Sequence record: PZ445428.1
Strand: one strand, 5' to 3'
Source: a phage
Length of the DNA stretch: 64,000 nt
Part shown: positions 8,064 through 15,577 of the stretch, piece by piece
How positions within the stretch are numbered: the first letter of the stretch is position 1
Layout: every line of letters begins with the position of its first letter
Program-made: the position numbers and the translations under genes
The notes under the pieces: generated by a model
What the model was told of the DNA's origin: nothing
Databases searched by the model: none
The model's input: the letters and a program-made list of their open reading frames with translations, nothing else

Positions 8064-8837
8064 TTATTTTTTCTCCAATAGTTCTTTAATCGACAGGATT
8101 TCTATCCCATTCGTTTCGGCTTTCTTATAAGATGAGGAAGAACGCTTTGATTCATCCTCACAGATGAGGTAGTTTACGTCTTTGGTAACGGACTTCTTAA
8201 CCGTATATCCTAGACTTTCTAAGTAGTTTGTTGCATCCGTTCTATTTGCAAAATCTTGCAAAGAACCGGTAATACATACCACGATTCCGTTCGGTTGAGC
8301 AACTAAATCATCGATAAAGATGATATCAGCTTTTGTGCCCCGAATACCAGAACTAAATTTCCATGGTAGTTCGATAACATCCTTGCCTTGTGGGGAATTT
8401 AGCCAGGCTTTATAATTTTCTCCAGCTTTGCCGTCAGCCTTAACATCATTAAAACTAATGCAACCCTGGGATAGCTTTTTAGCAGCAACCTCTCCAATCA
8501 GAGGGATTCCTAAAGAACCGAGAACTGAACCAAAGTCAATGTCTCCGCGAACCTTAGTATTTAACTCGCTAATTAACTTAGCGGCAACCTTACTTCCCAC
8601 AGCTCCGACCAAATCTTCTTCGGTCAGGTAAAACAGTTCTGAGATCTTAGTCAGTTCCAGCTTTTCAATTGTTTTCGGGCCAAAGCCCTTTAACTTCATC
8701 TTTGTGCAGAAGTTCTCAATTAACTTACTTGACTGAGCTGGACAGTTGGACTTATTCCGACAGAATAATTGTCCGTTGACAAGATCTAGCTTAGAACCAC
8801 AAGAGGGACATTGTGTTGGAATTTCGATTTTCATCAA
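8064..8837 (-). CDS. ligB: NAD-dependent DNA ligase, C-terminal subunit (Zn finger, HhH, BRCT)
   Basis: CPSCGSKLDLVNGQLFCRNKSNCPAQ zinc finger followed by HhH-like and BRCT-like segments; located downstream of the adenylation subunit. Confidence 0.75.
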   Translation of the reverse strand: MMKIEIPTQCPSCGSKLDLVNGQLFCRNKSNCPAQSSKLIENFCTKMKLKGFGPKTIEKLELTKISELFYLTEEDLVGAVGSKVAAKLISELNTKVRGDIDFGSVLGSLGIPLIGEVAAKKLSQGCISFNDVKADGKAGENYKAWLNSPQGKDVIELPWKFSSGIRGTKADIIFIDDLVAQPNGIVVCITGSLQDFANRTDATNYLESLGYTVKKSVTKDVNYLICEDESKRSSSSYKKAETNGIEILSIKELLEKK

Positions 8838-8864
8838 ATTTCTTCCTTATCAATTTATATAACT

Positions 8865-8893
8865 ATTATAGCAAGTATTTAAGCATTTAGCAA
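8865..8893 (-). promoter_or_regulatory. sigma70 promoter between the two ligase genes
   Basis: Reverse complement reads TTGCTAaatgcttaaatacttgcTATAAT then ATAAATTGATAAGGAAG. Confidence 0.6.
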
Positions 8894-9040
8894 CTACAAT
8901 TTTAACTAACTTTGCTTACCCTCGCCATAACTTTCTATCCCTCAACTGAATGATAATAGTATATACCTAAGCGGCGAAAATGTCAATAACCACTTTATAA
9001 TTCCGACATGGGAAACGGGTAGCAAAGGGTTATGAATTAC

Positions 9041-10054
9041 TTAATCTACTCGCTCTACAATACATGGGATTACACCACCAGCACGAATCACTCGAATCTG
9101 GCAACCGATCTCTAAATCGAGAGCGTTAATGTAATCAACGTTATTGAGAGTTGCTTTAATAATCTTGGCATCGTCAATAATTACCGGTTCGAAATATCCA
9201 ACAGGAGTTACTTTACCAGAAGCCCCTACCTGCCACTCAACTTTGAGAAGAGTTGTAATTTCGCCTTCTTCATCTTGTTTAATTGCATAAGCACCACGAG
9301 GATGTTTATTTGTCCAACCTTCACGGAAGAATTTGTTGTTGTCATTAATACGAACAACTTTACCATCCATTGGATACCAGTTGAAGTAGTTTTTAATATT
9401 CAGTACAGTGATGAAATCTTCGTTAGCTAACCAAGACATATCATCTAAGTAAGAGCCTGTAATACCTACAGAATCTTCGGAACACTGAATACCATAAGCT
9501 ACAAAGATCAATCCACCTTCCGCAATACGTTCGATGAAGTCATCTTCTTCTTTTAAGTTAATAGCACCAGAAGCGTAGTTACGTTTGTTTTCTACTTCTT
9601 TAGTGATAAGAACTTCACCAGTGATTTGAGTTGGTACTTTCTGAGAAATCTTTTTCGGAATGTTCAGCAATCTAACGTTGCTTGTGACATCATTTCCTAG
9701 AATACCATTACCACGAGTTAACGCTTGAACAAACGTTCCGTCGATATACAACAGAGAAATTGCGCAACCGTCTAGCTTATCAGTTTCTACATCATCAAGA
9801 GTAGTGAATGGAGCTTTATCACCCCGATCGAAGTAAACTTTCTGCAAAGAATACATACGATACAGATGTGGGATATCACCTTTCGGACCGATGGCATCTT
9901 CCGCTGTTGGGAAACGTTTAAGCAGACGATCATACTCAGCATCAGAGATAATACTATAACCCTGATAATACGCTTCTTGACAACGTTGGATAAACTCTTT
10001 TACATTATTCATCGTCGGCGATTTCCATCTTGAGTTCTTTATTATACTGCGCAA
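9041..10054 (-). CDS. ligA: NAD-dependent DNA ligase, N-terminal adenylation/OB subunit
   Basis: KxDG adenylation motif in VETDKLDGCAISLLY; 337 aa. Confidence 0.8.
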   Translation of the reverse strand: MRSIIKNSRWKSPTMNNVKEFIQRCQEAYYQGYSIISDAEYDRLLKRFPTAEDAIGPKGDIPHLYRMYSLQKVYFDRGDKAPFTTLDDVETDKLDGCAISLLYIDGTFVQALTRGNGILGNDVTSNVRLLNIPKKISQKVPTQITGEVLITKEVENKRNYASGAINLKEEDDFIERIAEGGLIFVAYGIQCSEDSVGITGSYLDDMSWLANEDFITVLNIKNYFNWYPMDGKVVRINDNNKFFREGWTNKHPRGAYAIKQDEEGEITTLLKVEWQVGASGKVTPVGYFEPVIIDDAKIIKATLNNVDYINALDLEIGCQIRVIRAGGVIPCIVERVD

Positions 10055-10205
10055 CCATACCAGCTAAATCAGCAGATTCTTTCAGAAACGCATCTCTGTA
10101 CGCTTTTTGATTTACTGTGCCGATACTATCTTGATATTTAATGCGAGCCATTGAAAGCAAATTAAGTTTTGCTTGAATTTTGGGAAGTGTTACTGTCATT
10201 GCCAT
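10005..10205 (-). CDS. hypothetical small protein
   Basis: Start moved to ATG at 10205, 6 nt after GAGAGGA of the promoter module; overlaps the ligA start. Confidence 0.4.
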   Translation of the reverse strand: MAMTVTLPKIQAKLNLLSMARIKYQDSIGTVNQKAYRDAFLKESADLAGMVAQYNKELKMEIADDE

Positions 10206-10234
10206 AATTGATCCTCTCATCAATTTATATAAAT

Positions 10235-10263
10235 ATTATATATTAAAATTGAGCTGAAAGCAA
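10235..10263 (-). promoter_or_regulatory. sigma70 early promoter
   Basis: Reverse complement reads TTGCTTtcagctcaattttaataTATAAT then ATAAATTGATGAGAGGA. Confidence 0.6.
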
Positions 10264-10290
10264 GTACATTTATAAAGAAAAAGCCAAGAA

Positions 10291-10599
10291 CTATTCAGTC
10301 TTGGCTTTGAGTTCCTCAGCTCTTTTCTGAACTTCGGCAAGAACCTCAGATTCACTAAGGATTTGCGTAAAAGCATAGAATAGCTGTGAAGTAGTTTCTA
10401 GAGTGTACGGAAAAGAGAAGCCGGATTTCGTTGGAAACCATTCTCCAGTAATATCCTGGAGCCAATATCTAATTCCCATGTATAGATTCCCACGAAATTC
10501 AGATACTGTCAATCTTACTTGTTCACCTTCCTTTTCCCATAGAAGGATTGACTGATCATCAATGTGTCCTTCATAGTTTTGGTTTACCTGATCGCTCAT
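10291..10599 (-). CDS. hypothetical protein
   Basis: 102-aa ORF. Confidence 0.5.
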   Translation of the reverse strand: MSDQVNQNYEGHIDDQSILLWEKEGEQVRLTVSEFRGNLYMGIRYWLQDITGEWFPTKSGFSFPYTLETTSQLFYAFTQILSESEVLAEVQKRAEELKAKTE

Positions 10600-10649
10600 T
10601 TACGTTTCTCAAATAGACAAAAAGCCCCATATAGGGGCTAATTGCTTTC

Positions 10650-10946
10650 TTATCGGCCTACTGGAGAAGCACGATCTAACTCTGACTGAAGGCTCGTAAT
10701 GCGACGAACTTTCGCAACAGGAATGAAACGGAAGCTATCGTTAGTACGGGAGAAAACGAGGATCTCGTCGTCTTTATCCTTACGAATACGTTCACGTTTA
10801 ATGCGCTCTGCTAGGTATTTATCCTGAGCAGGATCAAACTCCATCGTACCCTGAAGATACGTGGTTCCTTTCTGACGCAGTTTCTCATAATGGAGATAAA
10901 ACTCACCAAATTTGTTGCATTGTGCAATGATTTCAGCTTTATTCAT
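10650..10946 (-). CDS. hypothetical protein
   Basis: 98-aa ORF. Confidence 0.5.
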   Translation of the reverse strand: MNKAEIIAQCNKFGEFYLHYEKLRQKGTTYLQGTMEFDPAQDKYLAERIKRERIRKDKDDEILVFSRTNDSFRFIPVAKVRRITSLQSELDRASPVGR

Positions 10947-10983
10947 AACTGTATTTCCTTGTGTGGTGGATTTATCTTGAGAA

Positions 10984-11394
10984 TTATTTAGTGATAGCTC
11001 GGACAGCTTCTGCCAGATGAGCAGCTGCTTTACCAGTCAGCTTGTCGATAATCGCTGAATCCAGGAAGTCTGGAGCCAGACCTGCATCAGAGAATGCAGA
11101 CAGAAGATCGGCATGAGCCTGAGCTTTAGAAGTACGAGAACCGCCAGAAGCTTTTTCTCCAGTAGATGCAGTTGATTTGGAAGCAGAGCCAGCAGCTTTC
11201 TTGATATACAGACCCGCTTTAGTCAACTTCATACGGAAGCCGTTCGGAGTTACACCGTTTTCCTGAGCGATTTCGCTAACAATTTCCATGCTAACGCCCG
11301 GACGCTCATCTTCTGGGAATTGCTCCATACGAGCAACGTAATCGGAAGACATTTTTTCGAACAGTTCATCAGTCCACTGAGTTGGAGTAGTCAT
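10984..11394 (-). CDS. hypothetical protein
   Basis: 136-aa ORF downstream of the promoter at 11453-11481. Confidence 0.5.
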   Translation of the reverse strand: MTTPTQWTDELFEKMSSDYVARMEQFPEDERPGVSMEIVSEIAQENGVTPNGFRMKLTKAGLYIKKAAGSASKSTASTGEKASGGSRTSKAQAHADLLSAFSDAGLAPDFLDSAIIDKLTGKAAAHLAEAVRAITK

Positions 11395-11452
11395 ATTTTT
11401 GAATTTCCTTAATTAAGAATTAAACAGAATAGTTCTTTCAAACTATGAGAAT

Positions 11453-11481
11453 ATTATATCAAGAATTACAGGATTAAGCAA
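11453..11481 (-). promoter_or_regulatory. sigma70 early promoter
   Basis: Reverse complement reads TTGCTTaatcctgtaattcttgaTATAAT. Confidence 0.55.
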
Positions 11482-11731
11482 CTGAAATTTTTCAGTAACT
11501 GCTACACATCAAGCTCAACGATCTCCCAATCATCGGCCAGTGCTTCTTCTAGGGTCAGCTCACACACTTCGTCACTAGGCATTAGTGACGTATCGGAGGG
11601 CATCCACACGTACTGGCGTACGGTGTTGCTATCTACGAAGAATTTCAGGATTACTGTGTAATCCTTGTTGTTTTCCCAACTAGTCCGCTGGAGATATTTT
11701 TACGTCTCTAGCTTTTAACAGATCAGTTAAT

Positions 11732-12436
11732 TTACTCGCTGCGTCTTCCTTTTTCTTTATCAAGTTTCAGGGCAGCCTTAACAGCTTCATTAACTAACGT
11801 GATTACTTCTTCACGAGTATATTTGAAACCTAAAGCCTTAACATCGACTCCCAGCTCTTGCAGATGTTTTACAGAAGCTAATTCGTAGTTCATATAATGA
11901 ACGTTCTGTTGTTTACCCTCGCTTAACAACCAAACACGATAAGCTCCTACCGGATTAGTCAATGCTTTCTTAACTTCACCGATACACTGATAGCCAGGAA
12001 CCCAAACAAGCTCACCAACTTCAAATTCTTCTGCCATTGCATCATCTGGAACCAGCGGTGGATTCAACGGATCAACGATATCATTGATACGAAGCAGAGC
12101 ACCATAACGTTCAAGGACAGATTTAACCATAGCTACAGAACGATAGTTACGATCGGCAATTTCTTCGAAAGAATCACCAGATAAATACTGTTCAATTACG
12201 TTTGCGAGCTCAACACCTTGAATTAGTGTGCCACGCTTCTTTTTCTTCATTTCCGCGACTTGAACTTGGCGATCCTGCCATTCTTCAATCATTCGTTCCA
12301 TCGTCGGGTTAGAAGAAACTCCCAGCATTTCACAAGCAGCTTTCTTCGTTCCACCGTTCTCTAGATGTTCAATAACCTTCTTGAATACATCATCGGAGAT
12401 TTCGTGGATTTGCTTTTTTCTACGAGAACCAGCCAT
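11732..12436 (-). CDS. hypothetical protein transcribed from N25-like promoter
   Basis: 234 aa beginning MAGSRRKKQ; start context matches the first gene downstream of T5 promoter N25. Confidence 0.6.
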   Translation of the reverse strand: MAGSRRKKQIHEISDDVFKKVIEHLENGGTKKAACEMLGVSSNPTMERMIEEWQDRQVQVAEMKKKKRGTLIQGVELANVIEQYLSGDSFEEIADRNYRSVAMVKSVLERYGALLRINDIVDPLNPPLVPDDAMAEEFEVGELVWVPGYQCIGEVKKALTNPVGAYRVWLLSEGKQQNVHYMNYELASVKHLQELGVDVKALGFKYTREEVITLVNEAVKAALKLDKEKGRRSE

Positions 12437-12467
12437 TTAAATACTCCTCTCTCAAATTTATGAATCT

Positions 12468-12496
12468 ATTATACAGAAAATTTTTGCAAGATGCAA
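12468..12496 (-). promoter_or_regulatory. T5 N25-like strong early promoter
   Basis: Reverse complement reads TTGCATcttgcaaaaattttctgTATAATAGATTCATAAATTTGAGAGAGAGGAG, nearly identical to the classical T5 PN25 sequence. Confidence 0.7.
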
Positions 12497-12504
12497 ATAA
12501 ATTT

Positions 12505-12738
12505 TTACGATTCCTTGAGCAAAGAAGCCAGCTCAGCATAAACTTTATCTAACTCAAATCCAACGCGAAGGGACACACGAGTCTTCCGTTGTTTCAGAAG
12601 CCATATAGATACGTTAGGGATACCAGCGAGACGAGGTGGTACAACCCTACATAACTTTTCCGCAGTGTCATATCCGGAACGTTTACTCTCTTTTACGGGG
12701 AACTTCCTTGTTTCCCATTTTTTATTCTTCGCTGTCAT
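12505..12738 (-). CDS. hypothetical basic protein
   Basis: Start moved to internal Met with GGGAG 6 nt upstream; the track start would overlap the upstream gene by 68 nt. Confidence 0.45.
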   Translation of the reverse strand: MTAKNKKWETRKFPVKESKRSGYDTAEKLCRVVPPRLAGIPNVSIWLLKQRKTRVSLRVGFELDKVYAELASLLKES

Positions 12739-15577
12739 TTCTAGCTCCCAGTTCTGCCAAAGCCTCTTCATGCATCTGACGTTCTTCATCAGTCATGAAC
12801 TTAACTGGAATCGGCATACACTCGATCTTACAGTAAGTTCTGTACCAGTCCACAATCTTTTCTGTATCCAAATCCTTTCCGATACCCATCATTCCCAAGT
12901 ACATACGAGCATACTTTGGGTTTGCACTCTGACCTGTTTTAAGGAAGAAATCTTTCTTCTTACCTTTCAGAGCTTCGATAAATGGTTTGATTGTGACATT
13001 TGAACACTTCTTAATATCTTCCCAGAACATCTCGTGCATCTTATGGAAGAATGCAGCCCGATCGTTTGGTTTATCCTTGATATACTGTTCAACATGTTCA
13101 ACTGTTACATCTTTAATAGAATCAAGATGATAGTAACGAACTAGCAGAAGTTTTGCTTCATAAGCATCAGCATGACGTGGTGCACAATAATCAGGAGTTG
13201 AGTGCAGGATAGCTTTAATTCGCTCTTCTGTGTACTCTTTGTTTGCACCTTCGATAGTCCCCCAGCTTTCACTGAAGATATCAATAGTCGCACCCTGATC
13301 AAGCAGATAATAGCGTAGAGTACTAGTATAATTCCTAGACTCCAGCTCACGACGACGTGCATAAAGTTGCTGTGCTAACTCAATCCAACCTTCGTCAATA
13401 TTATACTGCTCGGAACCCGCAGAAAATCCACTTGTAGACTTATCAATAAAGTAATAGATATTCTGAGCACCACGGTCGCGCCTGATTGCTTGAAAACGCA
13501 TGTTTGGCGCTTGGTTACTGGTTCGAGTAATAACGAATACGTTATCGAAATAGTTAAAGTCAACCCCACTCGTTACAGAGGGACTACATAATAAACAATC
13601 AATCTGCTGATCAATTAGCTCATTAGTTGTGTAATCCAGAATACGACGAATATCCACATCTGATGTGGAATTTGAGTGAATTTCTTTAACTAACGCACCA
13701 GTATTACGACGTAACGCCATACCTTTTTCGTTCAGTTCATCCGGACCACAGTCAGATACTAGGATAGATTTCTCACCCATCTCTAGAGATGTTTGTAAGG
13801 CAACCCAAATGCTGGATTCATCAGGGAACTCATAAGCATGAGCTTTTGCCAGCATTTTACGGTGATGATTATAGAACGCTACCGGTTTATCAAAGTCGAT
13901 CAGAGAGCCATAGGCTTCAATCGTTTCAGCACTAATATCACCATCAGACAGAATAACTGTTTTAGCTGTCATGAGAATATCACGAAGAACCTGAATACAT
14001 TCACGACGGTTCTTAACAACTGGAGCAAACAACAGGTCATTCATTACCGCGTCACATTCATCGATAAAGATTGTATCAATCTGACCAACAAAACTCTTGA
14101 ATTTATGGATTGAGTGAATCGTAGTTGACATACGATCAATCGCACCACGCTTGAAGTTCAGCATATCTACAGACTTATCATACTGACCAGCACTAAATTT
14201 CTTTGCGTTTGAAGATACCAGAGCACGAGTGTTTGTTACCGCGATGAAATTCCCAGGAAGAACGCCAGCATCCAGCCACTTCGTTACCGCCGTAGTTTTA
14301 CCTGTACCAAGACTTGCCTTAACAAATGTTAGGTGATCTTTTGGAGGTACAATGTTAATCTTCAGATATGGGACTTCCGCTGGAGAATCCGTATTTAACT
14401 GTTTTAGAGGAACACCTTTCAAGTTTTGTGGAATATCTCTACGACTATTGTTAACAAACGCTTTTAACGCCTGTTTACGACCGTTATTGAAGTAATCCTG
14501 AATATTACGACTATTATCTTTAGTTGCAATGTATTCAGACAAGGCAGGTTTAATCTCACGTTCTAACCACGCAAAATCAACACCATCCTCTAACGCTCGG
14601 TGATATAGTTTTGGAATAATACGCAGGTACACTCCATCCTCAGCTTCTTCTAATTCGCTGATGGTTTCCTCTACTTTTTCAGAAGCAGCCTTCTTACCTT
14701 TGATTTGATCGAGTAAAGAGTAGAACTCTTCTTTGAACTCACCCCTAGTTGTTTCATAGTCAACTAGGTTGTTTGGCAGATTTACTTTCGAACCCTTAAC
14801 ATACACAAGGCGTGGCTTATTCTCCGCTTTAAACGGATCAACTATACCATCGCTAAATAAAGGGTCGGCAAAATAGTGAAGCTGTACAGAAGAATAATAA
14901 GCTAAGTCAGCAATATCAAAACCATACTTTTGCTTACTACTATCGTTGATAGACGTAAATAAGAACTTTAACTGTCCCTGCGTCACCTTAACATTAGATT
15001 CCAGCATTAAGTGCATTCGGATACCTGATTTTAATCCAGCCGAAGACGATGCATGAGCAATAAACCCTGCATCAAGAGGAAACATATCCTCACTAATACT
15101 ATGTAACATCTTAATGATATGACGTGCCATGCCAACAAGATTAAACTTGTCGTAACCACCAGTATCCTGAATACCATCCACGTCCATTGCAATAATGTGA
15201 CTAGGATTAGAAACGTTAAAGTTTCCACGAGTACGACGGACATTATCCTTTGGAGCCAAACATTTACCACGAATAGCCACAATATGAGGATCTTGGGTTA
15301 GCCTACGCATAATAGGCAGCATTTCAGCAAGGCTTTGCGGGTCAAGCTCTTCAAGTACATCAAATTTGAAGGGCATGGAAGCTGGTTTACCTTCCGGATG
15401 CTCTTTCGAGAATCGCTTAGCAAAGGTGTAATCTTCCACTTTAATTTCTTTCCAGATGCCTGTTGCTTTATCTCTGGAAAATCCTGCATGACCTTGTAGG
15501 ATTGAGAACACAACAATACTCCTATGCTGGTTATTCGAATACTTTTCTTTAGGACTATTCAAAAAAGAATAGAACAA
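12722..15577 (-). CDS. large P-loop NTPase, helicase or replication-initiator-like
   Basis: 951 aa; Walker A LGTGKTTAV and Walker B FIDECDAV in the central region; N-terminal MDVDG segment may be primase-like. Confidence 0.65.
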   Translation of the reverse strand: MFYSFLNSPKEKYSNNQHRSIVVFSILQGHAGFSRDKATGIWKEIKVEDYTFAKRFSKEHPEGKPASMPFKFDVLEELDPQSLAEMLPIMRRLTQDPHIVAIRGKCLAPKDNVRRTRGNFNVSNPSHIIAMDVDGIQDTGGYDKFNLVGMARHIIKMLHSISEDMFPLDAGFIAHASSSAGLKSGIRMHLMLESNVKVTQGQLKFLFTSINDSSKQKYGFDIADLAYYSSVQLHYFADPLFSDGIVDPFKAENKPRLVYVKGSKVNLPNNLVDYETTRGEFKEEFYSLLDQIKGKKAASEKVEETISELEEAEDGVYLRIIPKLYHRALEDGVDFAWLEREIKPALSEYIATKDNSRNIQDYFNNGRKQALKAFVNNSRRDIPQNLKGVPLKQLNTDSPAEVPYLKINIVPPKDHLTFVKASLGTGKTTAVTKWLDAGVLPGNFIAVTNTRALVSSNAKKFSAGQYDKSVDMLNFKRGAIDRMSTTIHSIHKFKSFVGQIDTIFIDECDAVMNDLLFAPVVKNRRECIQVLRDILMTAKTVILSDGDISAETIEAYGSLIDFDKPVAFYNHHRKMLAKAHAYEFPDESSIWVALQTSLEMGEKSILVSDCGPDELNEKGMALRRNTGALVKEIHSNSTSDVDIRRILDYTTNELIDQQIDCLLCSPSVTSGVDFNYFDNVFVITRTSNQAPNMRFQAIRRDRGAQNIYYFIDKSTSGFSAGSEQYNIDEGWIELAQQLYARRRELESRNYTSTLRYYLLDQGATIDIFSESWGTIEGANKEYTEERIKAILHSTPDYCAPRHADAYEAKLLLVRYYHLDSIKDVTVEHVEQYIKDKPNDRAAFFHKMHEMFWEDIKKCSNVTIKPFIEALKGKKKDFFLKTGQSANPKYARMYLGMMGIGKDLDTEKIVDWYRTYCKIECMPIPVKFMTDEERQMHEEALAELGARNDSEE

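Follow-up and report, generated by a model that had tools for sequence, protein, structure and literature searches.

A probable recent pseudogene of a small early T5-like gene between D2 and D3 in Escherichia phage TrudiGerster (Bas27)

The DNA stretch analysed in this work (64,000 nucleotides, sequence record PZ445428.1, hereafter the window) carries on its minus strand, between the genes D2 and D3, a short region in which very little has been annotated. A 401-nt query around this locus was 100% identical to Escherichia phage TrudiGerster (BASEL phage Bas27, MZ501108 / NC_105114), a T5-like phage classified in Demerecviridae, Markadamsvirinae, Epseptimavirus. The upstream gene D2 (11732-12436, minus strand) is intact and encodes 234 aa, according to the ORF list and to the annotations of TrudiGerster, bobsandoy, SH9 and T5. 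Between D2, described in the GenBank record as "putative helicase", and D3, the only annotated feature is a 35-aa ORF with a GTG start (11502..11609, minus strand), which appears as the hypothetical protein bas27_0043 in both GenBank and RefSeq. D2 itself is labelled "putative helicase" or "helicase" in several records; Pfam finds no helicase domain in this protein, and its only match is a weak N-terminal one to HTH_28 (E 8e-4, below threshold).

A stop-free frame of 65 sense codons (11505..11699, minus strand), with the translation KYLQRTSWENN...EIVELDV, has been found in this region. It is bounded upstream by a TAA at 11702-11700 and closed by the TAG stop codon of the gene at 11504-11502, which is common to all the relatives. 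The peptide that had been given for this frame in the earlier note, LQRTSWENNKDYTVILKFFVDSNTVRQYVWMPSDTSLMPSDEVCELTLEEALADDWEIVELDV, reads on the minus strand exactly as quoted, and the frame extends two codons further (KY + LQRTSWENNKDYTVILKFFVDSNTVRQYVWMPSDTSLMPSDEVCELTLEEALADDWEIVELDV). The other features described there were also reproduced. The possible starts are all located in the middle of the frame, the first in-frame ATG, GTG or TTG being the GTG at 11609-11607, followed by the ATG at 11603-11601; the 20 nt upstream of these codons (CAACACCGTACGCCAGTAC) contain no purine-rich stretch that could act as a Shine-Dalgarno sequence; and a comparison of all three minus-strand frames placed D2 in a different frame. 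By itself, a length of 65 codons would be within reach of chance, because mechanical ORFs of 64-112 aa, located inside or antisense to real genes, occur close by in the ORF list of this AT-rich DNA. It is the homology that makes this frame real. The 65-aa fragment covers residues 14-78 of a 78-aa protein that is intact in related phages, with 95-97% identity to their 65 C-terminal residues, and it matches the family phrog_643 with an E value of 6.2e-15 (1.5e-19 for an intact relative, profile positions 1-75 of 84). The homologs on which the earlier note had made its reading depend were found by tblastn in 438 phage records, and in 434 of them at least 80% of the gene is covered in one piece. 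An RNA gene at the locus was also considered and rejected, as Rfam and tRNA searches of 11300-11900 / 11000-12200 gave no match.

All 16 related loci that were read contain an intact gene in the form of an uninterrupted ORF of 76-87 aa. In every one of them the GTG start overlaps the D2 stop within GTGAGTAA, whose TAA ends D2, and an AAAGGAA Shine-Dalgarno sequence is located 5-6 nt upstream of the GTG. A 237-nt CDS is annotated in this same position in the Salmonella phages bobsandoy and SH9, with an 8-nt overlap with the end of D2 and a product of 78 aa (VSKLTDLLKAGDVKYLQRTSWENNKDYTV...EIVELDV). The T5 counterpart is ORF103 (AAX12040.1, 83 aa), flanked by ORF102 (D2) and the putative early promoter T5P34. 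The slot of this parent gene is thus the early region between D2 and D3, as found in the annotations of TrudiGerster, bobsandoy, SH9 and T5 and in the gene maps of the contigs L004, L005 and L006. Translation of the small gene is coupled to the end of D2 in the relatives and, given the position of ORF103 between ORF102 and T5P34, the parent is early and shares its transcript with D2. It is also a real protein-coding gene under purifying selection, because the pN/pS values among intact copies are 0.06-0.17. Both ends of the protein are almost invariant in the parent family, and the middle is generally hypervariable. Two length variants of the parent protein were observed: in phage smaug (NC_102114) a 15-nt tandem duplication (VRQYVWRQYMW, annotated as repeat_region) makes it 83 aa long, in frame, and in one 77-kb metagenomic contig (P0010) an 11-aa internal in-frame deletion leaves 67 aa.

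The window copy has been aligned with its five closest loci, which are the Logan contigs L005 and L006, the NCBI assembly contig L004, bobsandoy and SH9. L005 and L006 are the closest relatives, about 99% identical to the window. Four changes of the window were absent from all five loci. A T-to-C substitution at 11738 (minus strand) has converted the former start codon (11737..11739, minus strand), which is GTG in all 16 related loci, into GCG, and is synonymous in the overlapping D2 gene (AGT to AGC, Ser). A G-to-A substitution at 11709 (minus strand) has changed codon 11 (11707..11709, minus strand) from GGA/GGG (Gly) in the relatives to AGA (Arg), and Gly11 is nearly invariant, being kept in at least 90% of the family. 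An extra A (A4 to A5; 11701-11697, minus strand) breaks the gene into two parts by a +1 shift of frame after codon 14. The fourth change, A-to-G at 11664 (minus strand), is synonymous. All five closest loci have four A (GTAAAATAT) where the window has five, and in the survey of the 16 related loci GTAAAATAT was found in 14 and GTCAAATAT in one, T5 being different in sequence at this point. The window allele was matched only by the two TrudiGerster records among GenBank phages.

As a result of the shift, the N-terminal fragment in the original frame (11683..11739, minus strand) reads (A)SKLTDLLKARDVK followed by the out-of-frame residues ISPAD, compared with VSKLTDLLKAGDVKYLQR... in the relatives, and is closed by a TAG at 11682-11680 (minus strand). 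The TAA upstream of the 65-codon frame also arose through the shift, and the ORF list contains no in-frame start ahead of 11609. The C-terminal two thirds of the gene have no lesion of their own, and the Shine-Dalgarno sequence AAAGGAAG (11745..11752, minus strand), which lies within the coding region of D2, 5 nt ahead of the former start, is still intact, with its AAAGGAA core conserved in all related loci. Within the remnant, an 8-bp inverted repeat (AGGATTAC-ACA-GTAATCCT, 11647-11665) was flagged on the plus strand by a terminator scan. The A-to-G change at 11664 adds one pair to its stem in comparison with the relatives (AAAGATTAC...), probably by coincidence.

The region 11502-11739 (minus strand) is thus very probably a recently inactivated pseudogene of a small early gene of T5-like phages (Demerecviridae, ORF103 in T5, phrog_643), and of the two options raised in the earlier note, the pseudogene remnant is the one borne out, by the intact 78-aa gene found here in the relatives and by the GCG start and 1-nt insertion of the window copy. 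In the relatives, translation of the small gene starts at the GTG overlapping the D2 stop, behind AAAGGAA. In Bas27, three lesions in the first 39 nt (the GCG start, the Gly11 to Arg change and the extra A after codon 14) have disrupted this arrangement, so that the first 14 codons run into the TAG, and the other 65 codons are left without a start and with a TAA directly upstream. We infer that no protein is made from the locus in Bas27, and that the phage can do without the gene on E. coli K-12, which the record names as its host. As a phenomenon this is ordinary: a multiply hit recent pseudogene of a near-universal T5-like gene. The GTG-started uninterrupted ORF of about 75-87 codons is missing from the window copy, which for this reason is a pseudogene of the T5 ORF103 / phrog_643 family and not a functional member of it.

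The decay is recent, because the closest relatives differ by only about 0.4% in the flanks. Between 11981 and 8502, 13 differences separate the window from L005: 8 in the flanks (about 3.2 kb) and 5 in the 238-nt gene. Four of these five are on the side of the window, and they all fall within 75 nt. The number of changes in the gene exceeds the flank expectation, which fits a relaxed constraint after inactivation, although this excess is only modest under neutrality of the entire gene, and the clustering was noticed post hoc. When the frame was corrected, the window copy showed pN/pS values of 0.06-0.08 against copies at 14-40% synonymous divergence, and the remnant still looks protein-like because of these low values and of the recent inactivation. 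A jump in divergence from L005 was also observed inside D2, from about 0.4% (13 differences in 3.5 kb, 8502-11981) to about 4.6% (69 in 1.5 kb, 11981-13484), which looks like a recombination or mosaic boundary near 11981.

Other explanations of the broken reading frame have been weighed against inactivation. The gene might be intact in the real phage and the lesions be sequencing or assembly errors of the deposited genome, which seems very unlikely. The frameshift lies within a homopolymer (A4 versus A5) and the sequence comes from a single independent assembly, the RefSeq record being a duplicate of the GenBank one; however, five A make a short run for an error of this type, and four independent differences within 75 nt, three of them substitutions, are untypical of consensus errors. 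Were the extra A a consensus error, the GCG start and the Gly11 to Arg change would moreover persist, and the GCG start would disable the gene by itself. The exact 23-mer across the A5 run is absent from the IMG/VR and JGI metagenomes, an absence that is uninformative because the intact 22-mer is nearly absent from them too (0 and 3 matches). It is very unlikely that a low level of full-length protein is obtained by recoding, from a non-canonical or upstream start combined with a ribosomal or transcriptional +1 slip on the A-run. A tRNA-Lys +1 slip on A-AAA-A (11701-11697) would join both frames exactly, and an in-frame TTG at 11763-11761 is present (27-aa ORF, 11680..11763), but this TTG is inside D2, has no Shine-Dalgarno sequence at a useful distance and is replaced by a TAG in SH9. 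In addition, the real start is mutated, the Gly11 to Arg change also strikes a conserved residue, and five A's are too few for efficient slippage. The two-frame arrangement was found in none of the 16 related loci, 15 of which have no A5 run here, that of T5 being in frame, and nothing points to a programmed event. Programmed +1/-1 frameshift genes of phages, such as those of the tail assembly chaperones or SPO1 gp10.2-11.1, also have two overlapping frames at a short homopolymer, but in those genes the relatives share the shift and each frame has a function, whereas the shift in the window is confined to a single genome and its upstream frame is start-less. The non-canonical start proposed as the second option in the earlier note was not supported either: a TAA lies directly upstream of the frame, the upstream fragment is start-less, and all relatives use the GTG with its Shine-Dalgarno sequence. 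As no start serves either fragment in the three minus-strand frames, a non-canonical start or recoding was rejected.

It is equally hard to credit that the 35-aa C-terminal ORF (GTG 11609, bas27_0043) yields a shortened micro-protein that still functions. This ORF is open, begins with GTG, is annotated in GenBank and still contains LTLEEALADDWEIVELDV, the motif conserved best in the family; against this, neither its GTG nor the following ATG is preceded by a Shine-Dalgarno sequence, no relative has a separate start there, and the product would have neither the N-terminal helix nor the invariant R18/W21 motif, and less than half of the predicted beta-sheet. With the locus read as an inactivated gene, bas27_0043 is the C-terminal tail of a frameshifted gene, the longest ATG-, GTG- or TTG-started piece that was left of it, and most likely an artefact of the gene caller. 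The TrudiGerster record should therefore carry a pseudogene feature over 11502-11739 instead of this hypothetical protein.

Several other features were observed in the neighbourhood. Directly after the remnant, where T5 annotates the early promoter T5P34 ahead of D3, the sequence TTGCTT-17 nt-TATAAT is present (11453-11481, minus strand), and a short hairpin (ACTGAAA/TTTCAGT, 11481-11496, minus strand) overlaps its -35 end; none of the aligned relatives differs in this stretch. Further on, a 102-aa protein with a PC4 domain (ssDNA-binding transcriptional coactivator p15, E 1.5e-8), labelled "transcriptional regulator" in relatives, is encoded at 10291-10599 (minus strand), and downstream of its gene is that for the A subunit of the NAD-dependent DNA ligase, which is typically split in T5-like phages (9041-10054, minus strand). 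On the other side of D2, a gene coding for a 152-aa HNH_3 endonuclease is located in bobsandoy and L004 between the primase/origin-binding gene and D2 (window 12437-12721; L002:338-796; L004:1777-2235), and is absent from TrudiGerster, SH9 and L005. Immediately upstream of the locus, these phages are polymorphic for the presence of a homing endonuclease.

With regard to the function of the parent family, PHROGs names phrog_643 "transcriptional regulator", and RefSeq often labels the orthologues likewise. A Pfam search revealed no DNA-binding domain in the family, a literature search found no experimental paper behind the label, and a search of NCBIfam gave no match; the label derives solely from the PHROG name. 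The only Pfam signal is PF11195 (Tad2-like, DUF2829), which is full-length and falls below the 25-bit gathering cut-off. The scores were 18.7-19.2 bits for intact relatives and 16.9 bits for the remnant, compared with 85.8 bits for the positive control, the Tad2 of phage SPO1, identified as gp34.65 (PDB 8sme). This sub-threshold match was found in 22 of the 27 family members (best E 1.7e-4). A profile-profile comparison has been carried out with a Tad2 alignment of 53 sequences. The comparison of the T5-like family with Tad2 by hhalign gave a probability of 65% (P 6e-5; a low mact was used for a full-length co-linear alignment) and a score of 28.9 that was reached by none of 200 column shuffles (maximum 20.7). 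At low stringency, hhalign pairs LLKaGDVKYLQRDsW with LeaLK.G.kVaR.GW and TLdEALADDWEIV with QTDVLAEDW.iV. In the reverse search, SPO1 Tad2 matched phrog_643 with an E value of 8e-4.

The AF2 models of the parent protein (pLDDT 68 and 78) show a helix at the N-terminus and, after it, an antiparallel sheet of 4-5 strands. The fold described for Tad2 is a helix alpha1 followed by an antiparallel beta1-beta5 sheet (bioRxiv 10.1101/2023.05.01.538930), with which the topology predicted for the parent family would agree. Other searches gave no sign of Tad2: Foldseek found no match, and the family profile retrieved no Tad2 chain among PDB sequences, where the only match, to FhuE, was due to chance (E 0.86). 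It also retrieved no DUF2829 protein from 1.84 billion representatives, among which it matched 6 clusters, five of T5-like family members and one of a spurious repeat protein. In the literature search, no paper linking Tad2 with T5-like phages and no paper discussing this TrudiGerster gene was found; the BF23 paper mentions Bas27 only for restriction and BREX sensitivity.

Taken together, the chances are somewhat better than even that the parent family and Tad2 share ancestry or fold. That the parent protein is a divergent Tad2/DUF2829-like binder of small molecules (immune signals), that is, a signal sponge, is a more tentative proposal, on balance doubtful. It is likewise conceivable, with the odds rather against it, that the family has diverged strongly within the Tad2/DUF2829 fold and might sequester an immune signalling nucleotide; its members occur in nearly all T5-like phages and only there. 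The gene is kept by about 99% of sequenced T5-like phages and is inferred to be dispensable on E. coli K-12, as is typical of accessory or counter-defence genes, and Bas27 carries a natural null allele of it. If the proposed function were true, Bas27 would offer a naturally occurring null mutant, already at hand in a phage collection that is widely distributed, for hosts with Thoeris, CBASS or type III CRISPR. Should the resemblance to Tad2 prove genuine, Bas27 could be set beside an almost identical relative that has kept the gene, as an isogenic-like pair provided by nature.

Among known systems, the nearest to the window copy are the orthologues of T5 ORF103 in Tequintavirus and Epseptimavirus (phrog_643, pVOG VOG3968), which share its genomic slot and are intact, whereas the window copy is start-less and frameshifted. 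Tad2/DUF2829 proteins (Bacillus phage SPO1 gp34.65, ModTad2, AcrIIA7) are, like the parent family, small phage proteins, of about 80-90 aa. Tad2 is an anti-defence sponge against Thoeris, a homotetramer that binds gcADPR. Of the ligand-contacting and invariant residues of SPO1 Tad2, T65, W73, S76 and Q77 have no aligned counterpart in the parent family according to hhalign; W73 contacts gcADPR in Tad2, and if the parent family were a sponge, its ligand might be one other than 1''-3' gcADPR because W73, S76 and Q77 are missing. Both families share, in co-linear order, an N-terminal motif (L..LK.G..v.R..W) and a C-terminal one (..LA.DW.IV), in which R22, W25, D84 and W85 of SPO1 Tad2 correspond to R18, W21, D70 and W71 of the parent family.
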